From: a virus
Lineage: Duplodnaviria > Heunggongvirae > Uroviricota > Caudoviricetes
DNA: 6,689 nt
Strand: one strand, 5' to 3'
Virus record (IMG/VR): IMGVR_UViG_2667527657_000005
Position numbers and translations under genes: made by a program. The first letter of the stretch is position 1; every line of letters starts with the position of its first letter. The notes under the pieces are model-generated. The model was not told where the DNA came from. It saw only the letters and a program-made list of their open reading frames with translations, and ran no database searches. This document shows positions 1 through 6,689 of the stretch, piece after piece.

Positions 1-45
1 CAATGGGAAATTGTTGTCGCCATTGTTCGATTAACGCGTATTTTT
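1..45 (-). CDS. IS3-family transposase OrfB, 5' end only (reached by -1 frameshift from orfA); partial at window edge
   Basis: The -1 frame relative to orfA is open from the A-run (plus ~40-46) to the window start and reads ...KKYALIEQWRQQFPI..., as expected for the start of an OrfAB fusion. Too short to confirm by itself. Confidence 0.4.
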
Positions 46-333
46 CAGCGACTCCTGTGCAAAATACGCTGTTGCTTTTTTTAATATATCGCGCTCAAGG
101 CGAGCTTCATTTAACGCCTTACGCAGTTGCAGAATTTCAGATTCCAGTTCAGCCACCGTGCGGGAACCAGGAGTACCGAGCCCTTTTCTGGCGGCGGTAA
201 CCCATTGTCCTAAAGTGCCTTCAGGAAGAGATAATCGGGAAGCGCCTTCACTGATCGAAAGTTGATTTTCAAGAACCGTTCTGACAGCTTCGGCTTTGAA
301 CTCTTTAGAGTAACGTTGGGTTTTTCTGCTCAT
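31..333 (-). CDS. IS3-family transposase OrfA (HTH DNA-binding plus leucine-zipper subunit)
   Basis: 100-aa ORF MSRKTQRYSKEFKAEAVRTV... with ATG at 333 and TAA at 31-33. N-terminal helix-turn-helix-like region and C-terminal heptad-like stretch (LESEILQLRKALNEARLERDILKKA) typical of IS3-family OrfA. An A-run (CTG AAA AAT) sits just before the stop, where -1 frameshifting into orfB normally occurs. Confidence 0.85.
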   Translation of the reverse strand: MSRKTQRYSKEFKAEAVRTVLENQLSISEGASRLSLPEGTLGQWVTAARKGLGTPGSRTVAELESEILQLRKALNEARLERDILKKATAYFAQESLKNTR

Positions 334-384
334 TATTAGCTCCTTCTGATGCCATTCTATTTCAGGAAGGAGTGTCCGTTAAAC

Positions 385-579
385 TCAGGCTACCTCACCC
401 GTCCCGGATACCGAGAACGTTTCGTCCAGCAACTGGAGAGAGTTCGACGGTGGCATCATTGCCCATGCCGGAGGCGCTGGAGGTTTCGGCTGAGGATGGC
501 ACAGGGCATTTTCCTTTGACGAGCACCCGACCACCATTATCAAGCTTGCGCCGAAGAGCATCATTTTCAGCTTTCGCAT
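385..579 (-). CDS. Rz1: Rz1-like o-spanin (outer-membrane lipoprotein) embedded in the +1 frame of Rz; 3' end runs into the IS
   Basis: ATG at 577-579. Product [44 protein letters not shown]... has a lipoprotein signal with lipobox VVGC and a proline-rich mature region, matching lambda Rz1 (MLKLKMML...VVGC...PPPPPAW). It lies wholly inside Rz in another frame. Only codons up to ~398 are native; the last ~4 codons and the stop come from IS sequence. Confidence 0.7.
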
Positions 580-799
580 CAGCTAACTCCTTCGTGTATT
601 TAGCATCGAGTGCATCAGCATCACGCTGGCGCTGCTGCATGTCAGTAATGGTTGCGTTCGCCAGCTTCAGTTCTCCGGCGTTTTTGTCGCGCTGCTCTTT
701 GTAGGTAATGGCGTTATCACGGTAATGATTAACAGCCCATGACAGGCAGACGATGATGCAGATAACCAGAGCGGAGATAATCGCGGTGACTCTGCTCAT
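395..799 (-). CDS. Rz: Rz-like i-spanin (inner-membrane spanin subunit), C-terminally truncated by the IS insertion
   Basis: ATG at 797-799 overlaps the endolysin stop (ATGA). Product [83 protein letters not shown]... has an N-terminal TM anchor and a coiled-coil periplasmic domain closely resembling lambda Rz (lambda sequence recalled from memory). The ORF ends in a TGA at 395-397 supplied by the first three bases of the IS terminus, so the native C-terminus (roughly 15-20 aa by comparison with lambda Rz, 153 aa) is missing. The six-frame track's upstream extension to 814 uses a TTG and is not favoured. Confidence 0.8.
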
Positions 800-1329
800 T
801 GATCTATCCCCCAACAGGCTAATGCGCTTTCCTGGTCACGACGAATAACCTGTCCATAGCAGTTATTTGAACGTATGCGGCAATCGCGCCCAACATCTTT
901 TATCCACCAGCGAATCGCCTCGCATGCGCCCTTACGATCACCGGCATTCAGCCGCTTATAAAACGTCGACGGGAAACACTTACCGGGGCCAATGTTATAG
1001 GGGCAAAATGACGCTATACCCGCTTTCTGGGGTTCGGTCAGAGGTACTTTAATATTGCGCTCCACCCATGCCAGCGCCTTATCACGTTCAATAGCGTTAA
1101 CCTGGTCACATTTTTCCTTCGACAGCTTCATTCCCGGTATGACAGGCTTACCATCCACCATTGTGGCACCACGACAGATGGTCCATATGCCAGAACCATC
1201 ACGGTATGCCGTTGTGTGATTACCCTCTTTTTCGTTCAGAAACTGGTCAAGTATCTGGGGAGCAGACGCGCCTGCGGCAATCAGCGCCAGAACAGCAGCC
1301 GACAGGCCGTATTTGATTTTTGCGCTCAT
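796..1329 (-). CDS. R: Phage endolysin, T4-lysozyme-like (GH24) muramidase with N-terminal signal-anchor-release (SAR) domain
   Basis: 177-aa ORF, ATG at 1327-1329. N-terminus [25 protein letters not shown] is a weakly hydrophobic Gly/Ala/Ser-rich segment typical of SAR endolysins (P21 R type). It is followed by a catalytic E...D...T arrangement ([18 protein letters not shown]) as in lysozyme-family endolysins. From memory it strongly resembles the E. coli cryptic-prophage lysozyme RrrQ; unverified. Sits between holin and Rz as expected. Confidence 0.9.
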
Positions 1330-1394
1330 GGATATTTATCAGGATTTATCGGCAACAAATAACGAGCCAACTTATATACGCCTTTTAAGATAAG

Positions 1395-2024
1395 TCAGCC
1401 CCGGCTGGATCCAGTCATCAGGCTCTTTCTTAAAGGGGGAGTATTGAAATCACGAAGAAGAGCCTCCCGCACCGCAGCATCCATGTCTGCACCACTGGCA
1501 AGTGCTTCAATCTCTGCCGCCACCTGCAAATACCCCATGCAACGGCCAATGCGTTTCATAACTCTGGTGTTTTCGTCTTTCAGGCATCTGATAGCGAGAT
1601 TAATAATTTTCAGGCAGTGATGATGCGATGCCCGGACAGGTTTTCCGTTCTCATAAACGACGAACTCACCCTCTTCACAGGAAACCCTGAAAGGCCGATG
1701 GGGTTCCTGGTCTTTATCCGGTGCAGACGCAATAAAATCACTTTTATGCTCTTCCTCTCCGGCACTGTTAACCGTAATGACGTACTCAGGCCGCAGGTAA
1801 GCCGCCTCTTTTTCTGACAATGCGGCCGGTAAAAACTTTTCCTGCAAAAACTTCATAAAAGTCTCGTGAGCGACTTTGTGGCAGTAATCGTAAATCGCCG
1901 CATAATGCTCATCGCGGCGTTTGTTTTCATCTTCAGAACTCACCAACGCCGACAATTTTTTATTAAGCTCAGTGATTTCATTTTCCAGGTGATTGAATCG
2001 CTGATTCATTTCTTCATGCTTCAT
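1395..2024 (-). CDS. Hypothetical protein (209 aa), no family recognised; inserted between holin and endolysin
   Basis: ATG at 2022-2024 lies 3 nt after the holin TAA (2028-2030) and is preceded by GGGGAGAG, giving a Shine-Dalgarno with 6-nt spacing. Uninterrupted 209-codon frame with TGA at 1395-1397. Predicted N-terminal coiled coil (MKHEEMNQRFNHLENEITELNKKLSALV...), no TM segment, His/Cys-containing C-terminal half (RASHHHCLKIINLAIRCLK). I recognise no catalytic motif. Confidence 0.7.
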   Translation of the reverse strand: MKHEEMNQRFNHLENEITELNKKLSALVSSEDENKRRDEHYAAIYDYCHKVAHETFMKFLQEKFLPAALSEKEAAYLRPEYVITVNSAGEEEHKSDFIASAPDKDQEPHRPFRVSCEEGEFVVYENGKPVRASHHHCLKIINLAIRCLKDENTRVMKRIGRCMGYLQVAAEIEALASGADMDAAVREALLRDFNTPPLRKSLMTGSSRG

Positions 2025-2027
2025 TAT

Positions 2028-2243
2028 TTACTCTCCCCGTGCAGCCTTACGCTTGTCTTCTCTTATTTTGAAATACAGATTCGTCAGATAAGTCAGAAGC
2101 CCCAGAAGCAGACTTCCCAGCACACCAATCGCAGCCCACTGTGATGGCCTGACCTGATCCAACCACTGCAAAAACCAGTAGCCGGCACTGCCGGCGGAGG
2201 TGCCGTAGGCAATGCCCGTTGAAATTTTGTCCATGGATTTCAT
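2028..2243 (-). CDS. S: Class II holin / pinholin of the phage 21 S (S21) family, with dual-start motif
   Basis: 71-aa [74 protein letters not shown]. Two hydrophobic helices and a charged C-terminal tail. Starts at Met1 and Met4 (MKSM) match the S21-71 antiholin / S21-68 holin arrangement. Strong Shine-Dalgarno GGAGGTGA upstream of the ATG at 2241-2243. Pairs with the SAR endolysin downstream. Confidence 0.88.
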
Positions 2244-2403
2244 AGCCTCACCTCCGCAAATAACGGATGGCGTAGTTTTACACTGAGAAATGAAAGGGAT
2301 TTGAAAAGAAAAAAACGCAAAAGCGGGCGAAACGATATATACAGTAAGGAAAGCACTCTATCCAACAAACCACCCACAGTTAATCGGAATAAAAGCAGAG
2401 TGC

Positions 2404-2476
2404 TTATGAATGATCGCACGCCCGAAGGTTAGTATTTCTGCACAGCAATTTTGCAAAAAAAGGCGATCATTCATAA
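2404..2476. repeat. Perfect 14-bp inverted repeat (TTATGAATGATCGC / GCGATCATTCATAA) with 45-bp spacer, in non-coding DNA
   Basis: Read directly: arms at 2404-2417 and 2463-2476, each containing a GATC. Flanked by two further hairpin-capable inverted repeats (2351-2359/2397-2405 and 2484-2494/2519-2529). Confidence 0.65.
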
Positions 2477-2535
2477 CTTAAACGTCTTTCAGTCACTCCG
2501 GGATTTCCCATCATCGCAGACTGAAAGACTCTGAC

Positions 2536-2610
<75 letters not shown>

Positions 2611-2613
2611 ATA

Positions 2614-2689
<76 letters not shown>

Positions 2690-2691
2690 GC

Positions 2692-2768
2692 TGGCCCACC
2701 ACCGAGGACTCGAACCTCGCACCGTCAACTTAGAAGGTTGATGCTCTATCCGGATGAGCTAGTGGTGG
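2692..2768 (-). tRNA. tRNA-Arg (anticodon UCU, reads AGA)
   Basis: Reverse complement CCACCACTAGCTCATCCGGATAGAGCATCAACCTTCTAAGTTGACGGTGCGAGGTTCGAGTCCTCGGTGGTGGGCCA. Perfect 7-bp acceptor stem (C1-G72), anticodon stem TCAAC/GTTGA with loop CTTCTAA, T stem CGAGG/CCTCG, encoded CCA. A rare-codon tRNA of the kind carried by lambdoid/Stx-type phages downstream of Q. Confidence 0.8.
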
Positions 2769-2769
2769 T

Positions 2770-2846
2770 TGGTGGCCCTTGCTGGACTTGAACCAGCGAC
2801 CTGGCGATTATGAGTCGCTCGCTCTGACCAACTGAGCTAAAGGGCC
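2770..2846 (-). tRNA. tRNA with CAU anticodon, most likely tRNA-Ile2 (lysidine-modified, reads AUA); tRNA-Met not excluded
   Basis: Reverse complement GGCCCTTTAGCTCAGTTGGTCAGAGCGAGCGACTCATAATCGCCAGGTCGCTGGTTCAAGTCCAGCAAGGGCCACCA. Acceptor GGCCCTT/AAGGGCC, anticodon loop CTCATAA, T-loop TTCAAGT, encoded CCA. Very similar to E. coli ileX/ileY-type tRNA-Ile2 from memory, and in the position of ileZ in Stx-type phages. Confidence 0.8.
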
Positions 2847-2865
2847 GGAGGCAGAATAATAACCA

Positions 2866-2904
2866 TATGTCATCACATCTGCAAACTCATCTGACCACCA
2901 GCGT
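2866..2904 (-). promoter_or_regulatory. Putative sigma70 promoter for the tRNA array
   Basis: Minus strand reads TTGCAG - 17 nt (ATGTGATGACATATGGT) - TATTAT - 9 nt - tRNA 5' end. The -35 matches TTGACA at 4/6 and the -10 matches TATAAT at 5/6 with ideal spacing. Sequence-only prediction. Confidence 0.4.
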
Positions 2905-2932
2905 GTTTAACGTCCTGTACCGTTTTTCAGGC

Positions 2933-2960
2933 ATAAAAAACCCGCCCGGAGGCGGGTTTA
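2933..2960 (-). terminator. Rho-independent terminator, candidate tR' (late terminator downstream of Q)
   Basis: Perfect 6-bp GC stem CCCGCC/GGCGGG (2941-2946 / 2951-2956) with 4-nt loop, followed on the minus strand by a six-U run (plus 2935-2940 AAAAAA). Located ~85 nt downstream of the Q stop, where lambdoid phages place tR'. Confidence 0.6.
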
Positions 2961-3045
2961 AGCTGTGTGGCGAAGCAACCACTCTTAACAGAATATCCCG
3001 TTTTTTACGTACGTAAAATATTTTCTAGAAAGTCGCCCCTTACCA

Positions 3046-3426
3046 TCAGGGATGTTCAATATATTTGTCCATTTCTAACCGGACACCCAACATCATCAAC
3101 ATTCCTTCCACCACCCCCTCGGCTTTTTGTAGCTTCTTTCCTATATAACCATCTGAGCATCCATGCTTCCGCGCCAGCGTCATGAATGTCATCCCAAACA
3201 CGTAGTAGTCAACCAGCAAGTCATGTAGATCGTTGTTGTTCCGGTTAAGGCGGGCCATACACCCACATATAACCATCGCGTCATCGTCACAGCATTGCGG
3301 GCGGGATTTTACTTTTGAAGGGATTAATCCCTTAAAACCGGCAGCAATGGACGACCAGGTCACATCCTCATGATTATTAGCCACCCACGCGCCCCAGCGC
3401 TCAAGAACCTGCTGAATATCACGCAT
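3046..3426 (-). CDS. Q: Late-gene antiterminator Q (phage 82 / QuuD-like family)
   Basis: Product [60 protein letters not shown]... carries the conserved PQCCDDDA segment and ~126-aa length of 82-type Q proteins; resembles E. coli QuuD as I remember it. ATG at 3424-3426 overlaps the end of ninH (ATGCGTGA). The six-frame extension to 3462 starts at a TTG with no Shine-Dalgarno and is not favoured. Confidence 0.85.
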
Positions 3427-3619
3427 CACTGTCTTTACCCCTGTCCCATCCACGATGAACAATCAGAACACCATCAACAATGGCGTGCCCTTTGCCCTCT
3501 TTATCTTCAGCATATTTTCTTACCGTGGCGCGATTACAGTTCAGCATTCGTGAAACTTCGGTCATATTACCTCGTGTCTGGATAAGCAGTTCCGGTATCG
3601 TTTGAATTTTGACGCTCAT
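3419..3619 (-). CDS. ninH: NinH-like small DNA-binding protein
   Basis: Product [61 protein letters not shown]... is closely similar to lambda NinH (MTFSVKTIPDMLVEAYGNQTEVARRLKCSRGTVRKYVDDKDGKMHAIVNDVLMVHRGW, recalled) and has the same position immediately upstream of Q. ATG at 3617-3619 preceded by GGAGAG; the track's start at 3622 is a TTG. Confidence 0.82.
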
Positions 3620-3713
3620 CAAATACTCTCCGGTTCGGTGATTTTTATCCCGGGCTTTCCACCAGGGACATAATGATCGCGCACAAGCCAGGGCAAAACA
3701 AACTCATGGCGCA

Positions 3714-3971
3714 TCAGCGCAGCGCCTCCTGCACCAGTTTTTCAAACTTTCCGACTCTGGTTTCCAGCTCTGCCACACAGTCCACCAGCTCATCTACTGC
3801 TTTCTGTGCGCGATGCTTCGCCTGCATCAGTTCCCGAAGCGCGGGTACCATATCTTTACGGATAGCATCTTTTGTTATGCCCGTTTTTTCGAGTTGTTCA
3901 GCATGACGCAGCATTTCCTGCGCGTGTTTACGCAATTGTTCAGGGGTAAAAGTCATTGTCTGGTTGTTCAA
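3714..3971 (-). CDS. Hypothetical small protein (80-85 aa), predicted all-helical; nin-region gene of unknown function
   Basis: ORF MNNQTMTFTPEQLRKHAQEMLRHAEQLEKTGITKDAIRKDMVPALRELMQAKHRAQKAVDELVDCVAELETRVGKFEKLVQEALR. A TTG start at 3969-3971 overlaps the helicase TGA (TTGA) and has GGAG 7 nt upstream; an alternative ATG at 3954-3956 lacks a Shine-Dalgarno. No family recognised. Real coding status is moderately supported by operon context only. Confidence 0.55.
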   Translation of the reverse strand: MNNQTMTFTPEQLRKHAQEMLRHAEQLEKTGITKDAIRKDMVPALRELMQAKHRAQKAVDELVDCVAELETRVGKFEKLVQEALR

Positions 3972-5359
3972 AAGAAACGCTCCATCTTACTGCTGTCAGT
4001 TCGTTTATTACTGTATCTGCGCGGATTGCCGGGCTTCATGGGAGTGGAAAGCACCCGTGCACTTTCCTGGTCCACAGGCAGAAAATGTCCGTTATAAAAA
4101 CGCCGGTAAATCGTTCCCAGAGAACCGTTACGTTGTTTCGTGATATTGATTTCTGCGATGCCCCTGGCCTGCGTATCCGGGTTGTACACTTCATCCCTGT
4201 AAAGCATCAGAATGATGTCTGCATCCGCCTCTATTTCTCCGGAATTTTTCAGGTCTGAGTTCATGGGACGTTTATTGGGTCTGGACTCCACACCGCGGGA
4301 GAGCTGGCTCAGCGCAATCAACGGAAAACCACCGGATTTTGCCAGGCCTTTAAGCCCCTTTGAGATTTCACCCACGGCAAGGTCATGACGCCCCGTGGTT
4401 CGGGTTTTTATCAGCCCGAGATAATCAACCACCACCAGCGCCGTTTCCGGATATTTAATCAGGTGGTGTTTCGTTGTTGCGCATATCTCATCAATGGCCA
4501 GGTTCGCCTGGTCCACCATCCAGATATTGCGCCCGGTCATCCGCCCCACCCCTTGTGAGAAACGCGTCCAGTCTTCATCTTCAAAGTGAGCCACAGATTT
4601 CAGGCGTGATACTGGCATCCCTCCAGCCGCAGACACCATACGTTCACCAATCTGGATGTTCGCCATCTCCATGGTGAACAGAAGCACACCATGCCCCTGC
4701 TCAGTCACCTTGTCGATGATGTCCAGCGCAAGTTCGGTTTTCCCCATCGAAGGACGGGCGGCAATGAATACCAGGTCTCCGGGCTCCATACCGCCTGTTT
4801 TTGCGTCCAGTTCATCAATACCGGTCATCAACGTCCTGGATTTCTCCAGCCCCTGATTCCGGCATTCAACACGCTCAACCACTTCCGGAAGCACATCATC
4901 AATATGTACCGGCTGAATGACGCCCTTTCCTGTCGACAGTGTGACCATCATGTTCTGCGCATCCTTCAGGGCATCTTCAGCTGCTTCACAGGTATGCGCA
5001 TCACGTAATTTCTGCAGCGCCTCATTCAGTGTTTTTTCTGCATCGCGCAGTGCGGCATTGCGCCGCAACGCTGCAACATAGTGCTCCAGTGAAGACTTCA
5101 CCCAGGTTTTACGCCCGGTATCAGTAATCACCGGGGCAAGTTCCGGCATCTCATTACACAACAGCACGGGGTCAATCACTCCTGAAACACGGGCCTGTCT
5201 GCAGATGCCTGTATAGATATCCTGATACGCTCGTACAGAAAAAACGTCCGCTGGCAGTGTGGCCAGAATATCCATCACTTCAGGATCTGCTCCGCGCAGA
5301 AAGAACGCGCCGATGACAGCGCCTTCAAGGTCATCGTTACGCCATACTGGAGTTGTCAT
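3968..5359 (-). CDS. dnaB: Replicative DNA helicase, DnaB family (phage-encoded, P22 gene 12-like)
   Basis: 463-aa ORF with Walker A FIAARPSMGKTELALD, Walker B-like LVVVDYLGLI and DnaB-type N-terminal and C-terminal RecA-like domains. ATG at 5357-5359 overlaps the dnaC-like stop (ATGA). Confidence 0.9.
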   Translation of the reverse strand: MTTPVWRNDDLEGAVIGAFFLRGADPEVMDILATLPADVFSVRAYQDIYTGICRQARVSGVIDPVLLCNEMPELAPVITDTGRKTWVKSSLEHYVAALRRNAALRDAEKTLNEALQKLRDAHTCEAAEDALKDAQNMMVTLSTGKGVIQPVHIDDVLPEVVERVECRNQGLEKSRTLMTGIDELDAKTGGMEPGDLVFIAARPSMGKTELALDIIDKVTEQGHGVLLFTMEMANIQIGERMVSAAGGMPVSRLKSVAHFEDEDWTRFSQGVGRMTGRNIWMVDQANLAIDEICATTKHHLIKYPETALVVVDYLGLIKTRTTGRHDLAVGEISKGLKGLAKSGGFPLIALSQLSRGVESRPNKRPMNSDLKNSGEIEADADIILMLYRDEVYNPDTQARGIAEINITKQRNGSLGTIYRRFYNGHFLPVDQESARVLSTPMKPGNPRRYSNKRTDSSKMERFF

Positions 5360-6234
5360 GCAGCCACACCTCTGATACGAGAACGGTAACTGGGCCAGTT
5401 AAACGACAACCAGTTGCGTCCCCCGTCTGTGATCCTGTCGGCAATTCGGGGACTGATGAACGCCCACAACTCTTCCGGTGAGAGGTTACTGATCAGAATG
5501 GTGGGCAAGATACTTTCGTACCTGGCGTTGATAATTTCCTGCAAAATAGCCATTTCAGCCGCGCTGCCAAACTGAACGCCAACTTCGTCGATGATCAGCA
5601 AATCCATTGACGCATAACGCTCAATAACTTCATCCGCTGTTTTTTCGCTGTCATTCCGCCAGCAATTTTTCACAGCACGGGTAAGGCGCATCACGTCGGT
5701 GATCTCCACACTGGCCAGATAGTTACGGATGATGTGTTTTGCCATAGCCACAGCCAGATGATTTTTTCCGGTACCACAACTGCCGGTCATAACAAGACTG
5801 GTACCGTTCTCCAGCATATCTGGCCAGTTCTCCGCATAGCGGCGACAGGCCGCAAGATTTCTGGCTGCGCCAGGATTAACCTCCAGATAATTATCAAACT
5901 CGCAGTCCCGAAAACGCAGGGCAATTCCGGCGTTATCAGTCAGCTCTTCCGCCTTGATGGACGACAGCTCCATGGTCAAATCGTTGGCCTCAGCGATTAA
6001 GCAGTCAGGGCAGCATGAAATTTCTTCTCTGTCCTCGCCATTACGATCGCTCCACACCAGTATATGCGTGTGATATTCGCCATGTTTTTCGCAATATCCG
6101 CGACCTTCACGCATCAGGCAGGAACGATAAGGCCATGGCTTTTCGCCCTTCTGAGCAAATGCAATCTCTGCCCGTAACTCATCCATTCGCGCCTGTAGTC
6201 TTTTTTGTTGTTCACGCAGGTTAAACGTCATCAT
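5356..6234 (-). CDS. dnaC: DnaC-like helicase loader (AAA+ ATPase, DnaC/IstB family) with Cys-rich N-terminal module
   Basis: Walker A GSCGTGKNHLAVAMA shares the unusual GTGKNHLA P-loop of E. coli DnaC. Walker B DLLIIDEVGVQ and C-terminal LSFNWPSYRSRI closely resemble DnaC (IFNWDSYRSRV, recalled). Start assigned to the ATG at 6232-6234, preceded by GAGGTG with 7-nt spacing. The longer ORF to 6327 in the track crosses into IS sequence and is an artefact. Confidence 0.85.
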   Translation of the reverse strand: MMTFNLREQQKRLQARMDELRAEIAFAQKGEKPWPYRSCLMREGRGYCEKHGEYHTHILVWSDRNGEDREEISCCPDCLIAEANDLTMELSSIKAEELTDNAGIALRFRDCEFDNYLEVNPGAARNLAACRRYAENWPDMLENGTSLVMTGSCGTGKNHLAVAMAKHIIRNYLASVEITDVMRLTRAVKNCWRNDSEKTADEVIERYASMDLLIIDEVGVQFGSAAEMAILQEIINARYESILPTILISNLSPEELWAFISPRIADRITDGGRNWLSFNWPSYRSRIRGVAA

Positions 6235-6254
6235 CGCTGTCACCTCAGAATGTC

Positions 6255-6689
6255 TGAAGTGGCACACTGAATTTGGCCACCTGAACAGAGGTGATATGCT
6301 CACCTCAGAACAACACAGGTGCTCCAATGAAAAAAAGAAATTTTAGCGCAGAGTTTAAACGCGAATCCGCTCAACTGGTTGTTGACCAGAAATACACGGT
6401 GGCAGATGCCGCCAAAGCTATGGATGTTGGCCTTTCCACAATGACAAGATGGGTCAAACAACTGCGTGATGAGCGTCAGGGCAAAACACCAAAAGCCTCC
6501 CCCATTACCCCGGAACAAATTGAAATCCGTGTGGGCATTTCAGGCATGAGAACAGACTCGCGTTTTTCCGGAGTATCAGCGGAATTATTGATTAAGAAAC
6601 ACTCGACGCAGAGCGAAATTTTATGCAACAGCGGCTGCACTGCACAGGGATTATTTATCAGTTGATATGCTGTGCCATGATACGTCCTA
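6255..6689 (+). mobile_element. IS3-family insertion sequence (IS911-like), left end and rearranged orfA; continues to or beyond the window end
   Basis: Terminus begins TGAAGTGGCACACTGAATTTGGCCACC at ~6255 (TG-initiated IS3-family end), followed 72 nt later by an orfA whose first 67 residues match IS911 OrfA as remembered. Sequence after ~6528 no longer matches OrfA, so there is an internal deletion or a second rearrangement. Confidence 0.7.
6327..6665 (+). pseudogene. IS911-like transposase OrfA, disrupted: N-terminal ~67 aa intact, C-terminus replaced by unrelated sequence
   Basis: [68 protein letters not shown] matches IS911 OrfA (recalled). It then continues [14 protein letters not shown]... 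instead of the expected leucine-zipper segment (ELRKKLQRIEMENEILKKA...). The track's ORF start at 6291 is a GTG upstream of the authentic ATG at 6327. Confidence 0.6.

Follow-up and report, generated by a model that had tools for sequence, protein, structure and literature searches.

We analysed a stretch of 6,689 nucleotides from a Caudoviricetes record of IMG/VR (IMGVR_UViG_2667527657_000005), referred to below as the window, which carries a run of phage genes on the minus strand with insertion-sequence (IS) DNA on either side. In minus-strand order, these are a DnaC-like gene (5356-6327), a DnaB-like helicase gene (3968-5359), NinH (3419-3622), the antiterminator Q (3046-3462), four tRNA genes (2536-2846) and a lysis cassette made up of a holin gene (S), an open reading frame of 209 codons (orf209), an endolysin gene (R) and the nested spanin genes Rz and Rz1. 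Next to these genes lie the left 397 bases of an IS3-family element, IS600 (1-397, minus strand). We compared the window with ten assemblies fetched by an exact look-up of its 134-aa Rz product, together with 10-kb flanks; individual loci are given L numbers where they need to be told apart. Window bases 1-6531 were 99.97% identical to two of these loci, L006 and L013.

The part of the cassette upstream of the spanin genes appears undamaged, in agreement with the original prediction that the pinholin and the endolysin had stayed intact. S (2028-2243, minus strand; PF04971, 5.5e-35) is full length and belongs with the class II holins (pinholin/antipinholin) of the phage 21 type; it matched S21-71 of that phage at 94% identity across 71 of 71 residues, and the dual start, MKSM, is shared. 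R (796-1329, minus strand; PF00959) is a full-length phage lysozyme with the motif E35-x8-D44-x5-T50 and no amino-acid difference from the R of an intact E. coli relative, FDAARGOS_944. It was 33% identical to the SAR endolysin of phage 21, with the catalytic Glu aligned and a homologous catalytic domain, and its N-terminus (22 residues) is Gly/Ala/Ser-rich, as in R21. We consider R a putative SAR endolysin, on the composition of this SAR-like segment and the pairing with a pinholin. Between S and R lies orf209 (1395-2024, minus strand), which matched PHROG 1085 (‘unknown function’; 1.2e-73), returned no match in Pfam, NCBIfam or PADLOC and none below E = 0.049 in the PDB, and occupies the slot held by YdfR/DUF1327 in related phages. 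It had been proposed that the IS insertion fixed this gene in place. We found instead that six E. coli prophages carry orf209 with at least 99% conservation, and that the same gene stands between S and R in E. coli prophages with an intact Rz; next to one such 155-aa Rz, the E. coli copy differs from the window product by a single residue. The presence of orf209 therefore owes nothing to the IS. As a whole, the window cassette was 99.4% identical to that of E. coli FDAARGOS_944. One of the fetched sequences (L004/L010, CP178302.1) looks like an indel-rich assembly, since its endolysin gene is frameshifted.

The tRNA genes between Q and S were called by ARAGORN as Gly-TCC, Thr-TGT, Arg-TCT and one with a CAT anticodon, and an Rfam scan of the window returned these four tRNAs and nothing else. 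ARAGORN assigns the CAT tRNA to Met, RefSeq assigns its counterpart in the E. coli relative to tRNA-Ile, and phage PhiR47_1 has a tRNA-Lys at the position of the Arg gene. Some strains, but not others, have group II intron-type genes (RVT_1 and GIIM reverse transcriptase) in this part of the locus or beyond it: one separates Q from the tRNA genes (L005 5950-7869, at the equivalent of window 2930/2931), another sits inside an IS911 copy (L007, about 1400-4160). Upstream of the replication genes, the prophage is cut off by IS911. An IS911-type left end lies at window 6257, about 22 bp upstream of the DnaC-like start, with its orfA running from 6327 on the plus strand; the early region is replaced, and the sequence past this IS911 varies between strains. 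Related Shigella-type loci all match the window up to 6531 only. Here, the IS911 orfA breaks off at about 6530, where small-plasmid-like DNA takes over; window 6529-6689 matches, at 100% identity, a stretch without annotation in 3.2-kb Rop-type E. coli plasmids (e.g., NZ_CP033853.1). This join could be either a real rearrangement or an assembly chimera.

At the other edge, window 1-397 shared about 99% identity with elements entered in RefSeq as ‘IS3-like element IS600 family transposase’, with the note ‘programmed frameshift’. The window holds the 100-aa orfA (31-333, minus strand; HTH_Tnp_1, PF01527, 1.5e-20) and a terminal inverted repeat that starts at 397 with TGAGGTAGCCTGAGTTTAACGGACAC..., and the Pfam families HTH_Tnp_1 and rve were both found for IS600 orfA/orfB. 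A full copy of 1264 bp is present in L006 and L013, the L006 copy running from TGAGGTAG to ACACCTCA. Judged by its sequence, the element is IS600 by every test but target duplication, and the absent duplication is evidence for a deletion (see below), not against this identity. In three assemblies the IS600 copy at the junction is itself interrupted just past orfA by another IS3-family element (L004 1928-3220, as well as L003 and L010, in the latter two at the position of window 20/21), which we take to be IS629/IS1203-like from its orfA (MTKNTRFSPEVRQRAVRMV...).

The boundary between IS600 and prophage DNA falls at 397/398. Window base 397 is the last with IS600 homology (minus strand, ...CCGGGACGGG|TGAGGTAGCCTGAG), and the matches to phage and E. 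coli sequences all begin at window 399. When aligned on the minus strand with PhiR47_1 and mEp460, the window was nearly identical up to ...CCGGGACGG; there the similarity broke off abruptly, and the window went on as G|TGAGGTAGCCTGAG. This confirmed that, as originally predicted, an IS600 terminus sits inside the nested Rz/Rz1 pair, with the left end of the element at window base 397. Far from mapping downstream of the native stop codons, the IS boundary lies 21 codons upstream of the native stop of Rz and 8 codons upstream of that of Rz1. The junction DNA was identical in all Shigella-type loci fetched (L003-L014), with matches both in CP182556.1, a chromosome of Shigella flexneri, and in one of 4.44 Mb that is labelled E. 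coli ECMA0423. A search of 5,426 complete E. coli genomes for either junction found neither, with no place covering at least 80% of the query. The single base between the two homologies, a minus-strand G at window 398, makes the last Rz codon GGG; the codon is GGA in every relative examined, i.e., in phages, in E. coli prophages and in a second Shigella Rz fragment. We rejected the idea that this G belongs to IS600, as another IS600 copy is preceded by C, and also that it is a lineage polymorphism, as the relatives and the second Rz fragment of the same Shigella genomes all have GGA. A private SNP is one possible source, an imprecise joint another.

What remains of the i-spanin gene Rz (PF03245) is an open reading frame of 134 codons, which spans 395-799 on the minus strand when read from the ATG that matches the MSRV start of lambda Rz, or 395-814 from an upstream TTG. 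The suggestion that its stop codon is the TGA of the IS end proved correct, as bases 397-395 are the first three bases of the element. Intact Rz is 155 aa long in PhiR47_1, mEp460 and E. coli FDAARGOS_944, 153 aa in lambda and 157 aa in PhiR12_1, and the intact homologues all finish in ...Y-I-x-x-Q-C-(L)-R/N. Alignment with intact relatives thus bore out the predicted loss of the Rz C-terminus, but not its size, which is 21 residues (IIRDQTALRTLQEYIRTQCLR) rather than the estimated 15-20. The N-terminal transmembrane domain and Rz homology are present, with a 19-residue segment identical to lambda, and the 134 residues as a whole were 70% identical to lambda Rz. What Rz lacks is a complete periplasmic domain (distal CC2 and the o-spanin-binding C-terminus): it ends at the equivalent of lambda residue 133, and its match to Pfam PF03245 (Phage_lysis; 2.2e-23) covers profile positions 1-104 of 126. 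The lost segment aligns with lambda residues 134-153 and takes in, besides the distal half of CC2, the C-terminal domain that bears the equivalent of Cys C152.

Nonsense alleles of lambda Rz at 34 positions across the periplasmic domain are lysis-defective, the engineered Q151X and C152X products are lysis-defective and fail to accumulate, and R153 was the sole dispensable residue in a saturating screen (PMC5295617). In lambda, Rz touches Rz1 through CC2 residues 143-151, and E150 of Rz forms a salt bridge with R59 of Rz1, which agrees with the earlier suggestion that the lost C-terminus is the part that contacts Rz1 (PMC5295617). Since nonsense alleles as late as codons 151 and 152 are enough to block lysis in lambda, the window Rz is almost certainly null, a call extrapolated from a lambda protein with 70% identity to it. 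A truncated Rz devoid of the Rz1-contact segment would form no spanin complex, and outer-membrane disruption would then fail even if the cassette were expressed. A spanin defect blocks this last step of lysis, and gives rise to spherical cells when divalent cations stabilise the outer membrane.

The o-spanin gene Rz1 (385-579, minus strand) was recognised from PF06085 and from alignment with homologues and lambda Rz1. We found in it what defines an o-spanin, namely a proline-rich lipoprotein encoded in the +1 frame inside the i-spanin gene: its signal sequence, lipobox Cys19 (VVGC) and PPAPPAW proline-rich region are all intact, and PF06085 matched over profile positions 1-40 of 41. As had been anticipated, the gene reads into the IS, being native through T60, with codon 61 spanning the junction and three IS codons completing the ending GEVA before a stop. 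Intact Rz1 has 68 aa and ends ...SVSGTESSETRQH; the window Rz1 has 64 aa and has lost 8 native residues. The view that both spanin genes are damaged therefore held in that a cut at one nucleotide affects both, but not in that the damage is equal. Rz1 is barely affected, because its native part extends to the counterpart of residue 59 of the 60 in lambda Rz1, and lambda Rz1 truncated to 54 residues (S55X) is still functional (PMC5295617). On this reasoning the window Rz1 is probably still competent, and we expect the damage to be asymmetric, with Rz null and Rz1 competent.

Twelve differences separate the window from the closest E. coli cassette, and 8 of the 12 fall in Rz. At no fewer than 3 of the 6 sites of amino-acid difference the window agrees with phage PhiR47_1, which places those changes on the E. 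coli side; the pattern gives no evidence for accelerated decay or relaxed selection in the truncated gene. A second, inverted 3' fragment of Rz/Rz1 was found at L009 3051-3322, as well as in L008, L011, L012 and L014, where its 5' side is cut by the IS911 that borders the DnaC-like gene. This fragment was 100% identical to the window Rz over an overlap of 177 nt and retains both full C-termini (...GIRDGIISDQTALRMLQEYIRIQCLGG for Rz and ...SVSGTESSATRQH for Rz1). Recombination between the two Rz copies could in principle rebuild an intact spanin.

The window ends inside the IS, and we read its far junction from the near-identical genomes. In the ten assemblies with the exact Rz product, the order of the locus is S, orf209, R, Rz (134 aa), IS600 orfA/orfB, a fragment of the small terminase gene Nu1, terminase A, W and the portal gene, with head and tail genes continuing past the portal. 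The fragment right of IS600 is called as a 107-aa Phage_Nu1 product. With the PhiR12_1 Nu1 (169 aa) as a tblastn query, only residues 68-169 matched right of the IS, and the DNA alignment agrees. The locus had been read as a plain IS insertion; the other end of IS600, once located, turned out to abut codon 68 of Nu1, and there is no target-site duplication. Specifically, the flanks read GGG|IS600|AAC, whereas three control simple insertions of IS600 in E. coli carried 3-bp duplications (GAG, GAC and GTT). In PhiR12_1, a lambda-type cosN (identical to lambda bp 1-17) lies between Rz and Nu1; this sequence was absent from every Shigella-type locus fetched. The arrangement points to a deletion that took away codons 135-155 of Rz, 61-68 of Rz1 and 1-67 of Nu1, along with the spacer that contains cos. 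Its size, estimated from a PhiR12_1-like layout, would be about 0.83 kb. No intact ancestor of the prophage was recovered; the closest relative on the Nu1 side, PhiR12_1, is only 88% identical, and the closest on the Rz side, E. coli FDAARGOS_944, has a different terminase module. We also considered an inversion or translocation instead of a deletion, and rejected both on the evidence of the fetched loci, in which Rz, IS600 and the 3' part of Nu1 are collinear and in the same orientation.

The remainder of the prophage has decayed as well. The portal gene is split over two reading frames near residue 325-331 (L006 14057-15650), and terminase A changes frame for about its final 26 residues (L006 13793-13870). 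The prophage had been called cryptic from the state of its lysis genes, and the wider locus confirmed this: cos and the N-terminus of Nu1 are lost, the portal is frameshifted and the early region is cut off by IS911. The losses of cos and of the Nu1 N-terminus matter more than the spanin lesion. Since the early region upstream of the DnaC-like gene has been replaced by IS911, the induction phenotype that had been proposed as a check is probably untestable in the native strain.

Taken together, we consider it highly likely that the window derives from a cryptic lambdoid prophage of the Shigella flexneri type, in which IS600 sits at a deletion in the late operon, Rz is null, Rz1 is probably competent and the phage is dead. 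A full-length IS600 (1264 bp) would here join Rz codon 134 (equivalent to Rz1 codon 60/61) on its left to Nu1 codon 68 on its right. This could have arisen by a single IS600 insertion followed by an adjacent deletion, or by recombination of two directly repeated IS600 copies. Either route leaves one IS copy without a target-site duplication, so the flanks fit both, and an intermediate that would distinguish the routes was sought in 5,426 complete E. coli genomes and not found. Both routes have documented precedents among IS in Shigella and IS3-family elements. IS600 is one of the five IS expanded in all Shigella species, IS911 being another; IS cause deletions in Shigella, where truncation, deletion and rearrangement are recognised forms of genome decay (PMC7373316); and IS3-family elements have been found to generate deletions of flanking DNA (PMC9397093).

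Several other explanations of the junction can be envisaged. The left junction by itself looks like an ordinary insertion, with a clean IS terminus within open reading frames, and a simple insertion of IS600 into Rz/Rz1 would have both genes and the late region resume past the element behind a 3-bp duplication. What lies on the far side is Nu1 codon 68 and not Rz codon 135, the GGG and AAC flanks carry no duplication although all three control insertions do, and cos is absent; a simple insertion is already refuted for the ten assemblies read, and we regard it as highly improbable for the window. It is extremely unlikely that the short Rz and Rz1 are natural, functional variants which IS600 adjoins by chance. 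Gene callers do treat the 134-aa product as they would any protein with a Phage_lysis domain, yet the homologues examined all extend 19-23 residues further, to a conserved ...Y-I-x-x-Q-C motif, the Pfam match halts at position 104 of 126, the Rz stop codon is that of the IS, and truncations of lambda Rz by as few as 2 residues abolish lysis. Multicopy elements such as IS600 can also mislead assembly, and the window does contain, at 6529-6689, a join to small-plasmid-like DNA that no related genome shares. The IS600 junctions, by contrast, recur on both the left and the right in complete chromosomes from independent projects (CP182556.1, CP178302.1, LR213455.1, CP012735.1, CP007037.1 and others), and the exact 134-aa protein occurs in 311 blocks of the assembly collection in which it was indexed, which makes an assembly or chimera artefact at the junction exceedingly improbable.

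Alternatively, the module of pinholin, orf209 and endolysin, once rid of its spanin, may have been domesticated, i.e., kept by selection for a host function such as controlled, non-explosive permeabilisation of the envelope or the release of vesicles or proteins, with the loss of Rz being adaptive. Removal of the Rz C-terminus would, if this were true, have made lysis something the cell can tolerate. In 8 of the 10 assemblies, S, orf209 and R are all complete and show no sequence difference (R differs in two, one of them error-prone), and the Q antiterminator and the four tRNA genes have also been kept. These assemblies are, however, about 99.9% identical overall, meaning that intactness reflects recent common ancestry and not selection; moreover, R is shortened to 165 aa in L007, and the early region that would drive expression of Q is gone. 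We thus find co-option very unlikely, and favour the decay of a dead prophage around an IS600-associated deletion.

The locus is an instance of ordinary prophage decay driven by IS600 and IS911 in Shigella, already known in kind, and this specific IS600 junction may never have been described on its own. Its main importance is for annotation. The IS terminus supplies an immediate stop, as a result of which gene callers report a 134-aa Rz and a 64-aa Rz1 as ordinary proteins in hundreds of assemblies. Predictions of prophage completeness and of lysis cassettes in Shigella should treat the locus as a remnant.

With the spanin pair of lambda the window pair shares its placement directly downstream of the endolysin gene with an ATGA stop/start overlap, the N-terminal transmembrane segment of Rz (70% identity over 134 residues), and an Rz1 embedded in the +1 frame that carries the lipobox Cys and PPxPPAW. 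Unlike lambda, it lacks the equivalent of Rz residues 134-153 and has a foreign tail of 4 residues on Rz1. The phage 21 cassette is similar in its order (S, R, Rz/Rz1), in its holin (94% identical to S21-71) and in an endolysin of the same lysozyme family with a Gly/Ala-rich N-terminus. By contrast with phage 21, the window prophage has an additional gene of 209 aa separating S from R, an endolysin with only 33% identity to R21 and a truncated Rz, and it has lost cos and the beginning of the small terminase gene.

IS-driven decay in Shigella, marked by expansion of IS1, IS2, IS4, IS600 and IS911, offers the closest parallel: IS600 and IS911 bound the surviving segment, and truncation of genes by IS ends, deletion next to an IS and strain-to-strain rearrangement at IS911 are all seen here (PMC7373316). 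We found no difference in kind. IS600 has also entered a lambdoid lysis cassette in E. coli CFSAN004176 (L023), where it splits a prophage lysozyme gene at about 791.6-793.4 kb of NZ_CP014583.1. That is a simple insertion with a clean GAC duplication and both gene halves kept, whereas at the Shigella junction the flanks are non-contiguous and there is no duplication. As this insertion is independent, the presence of IS600 in lysis genes is not unique to Shigella.
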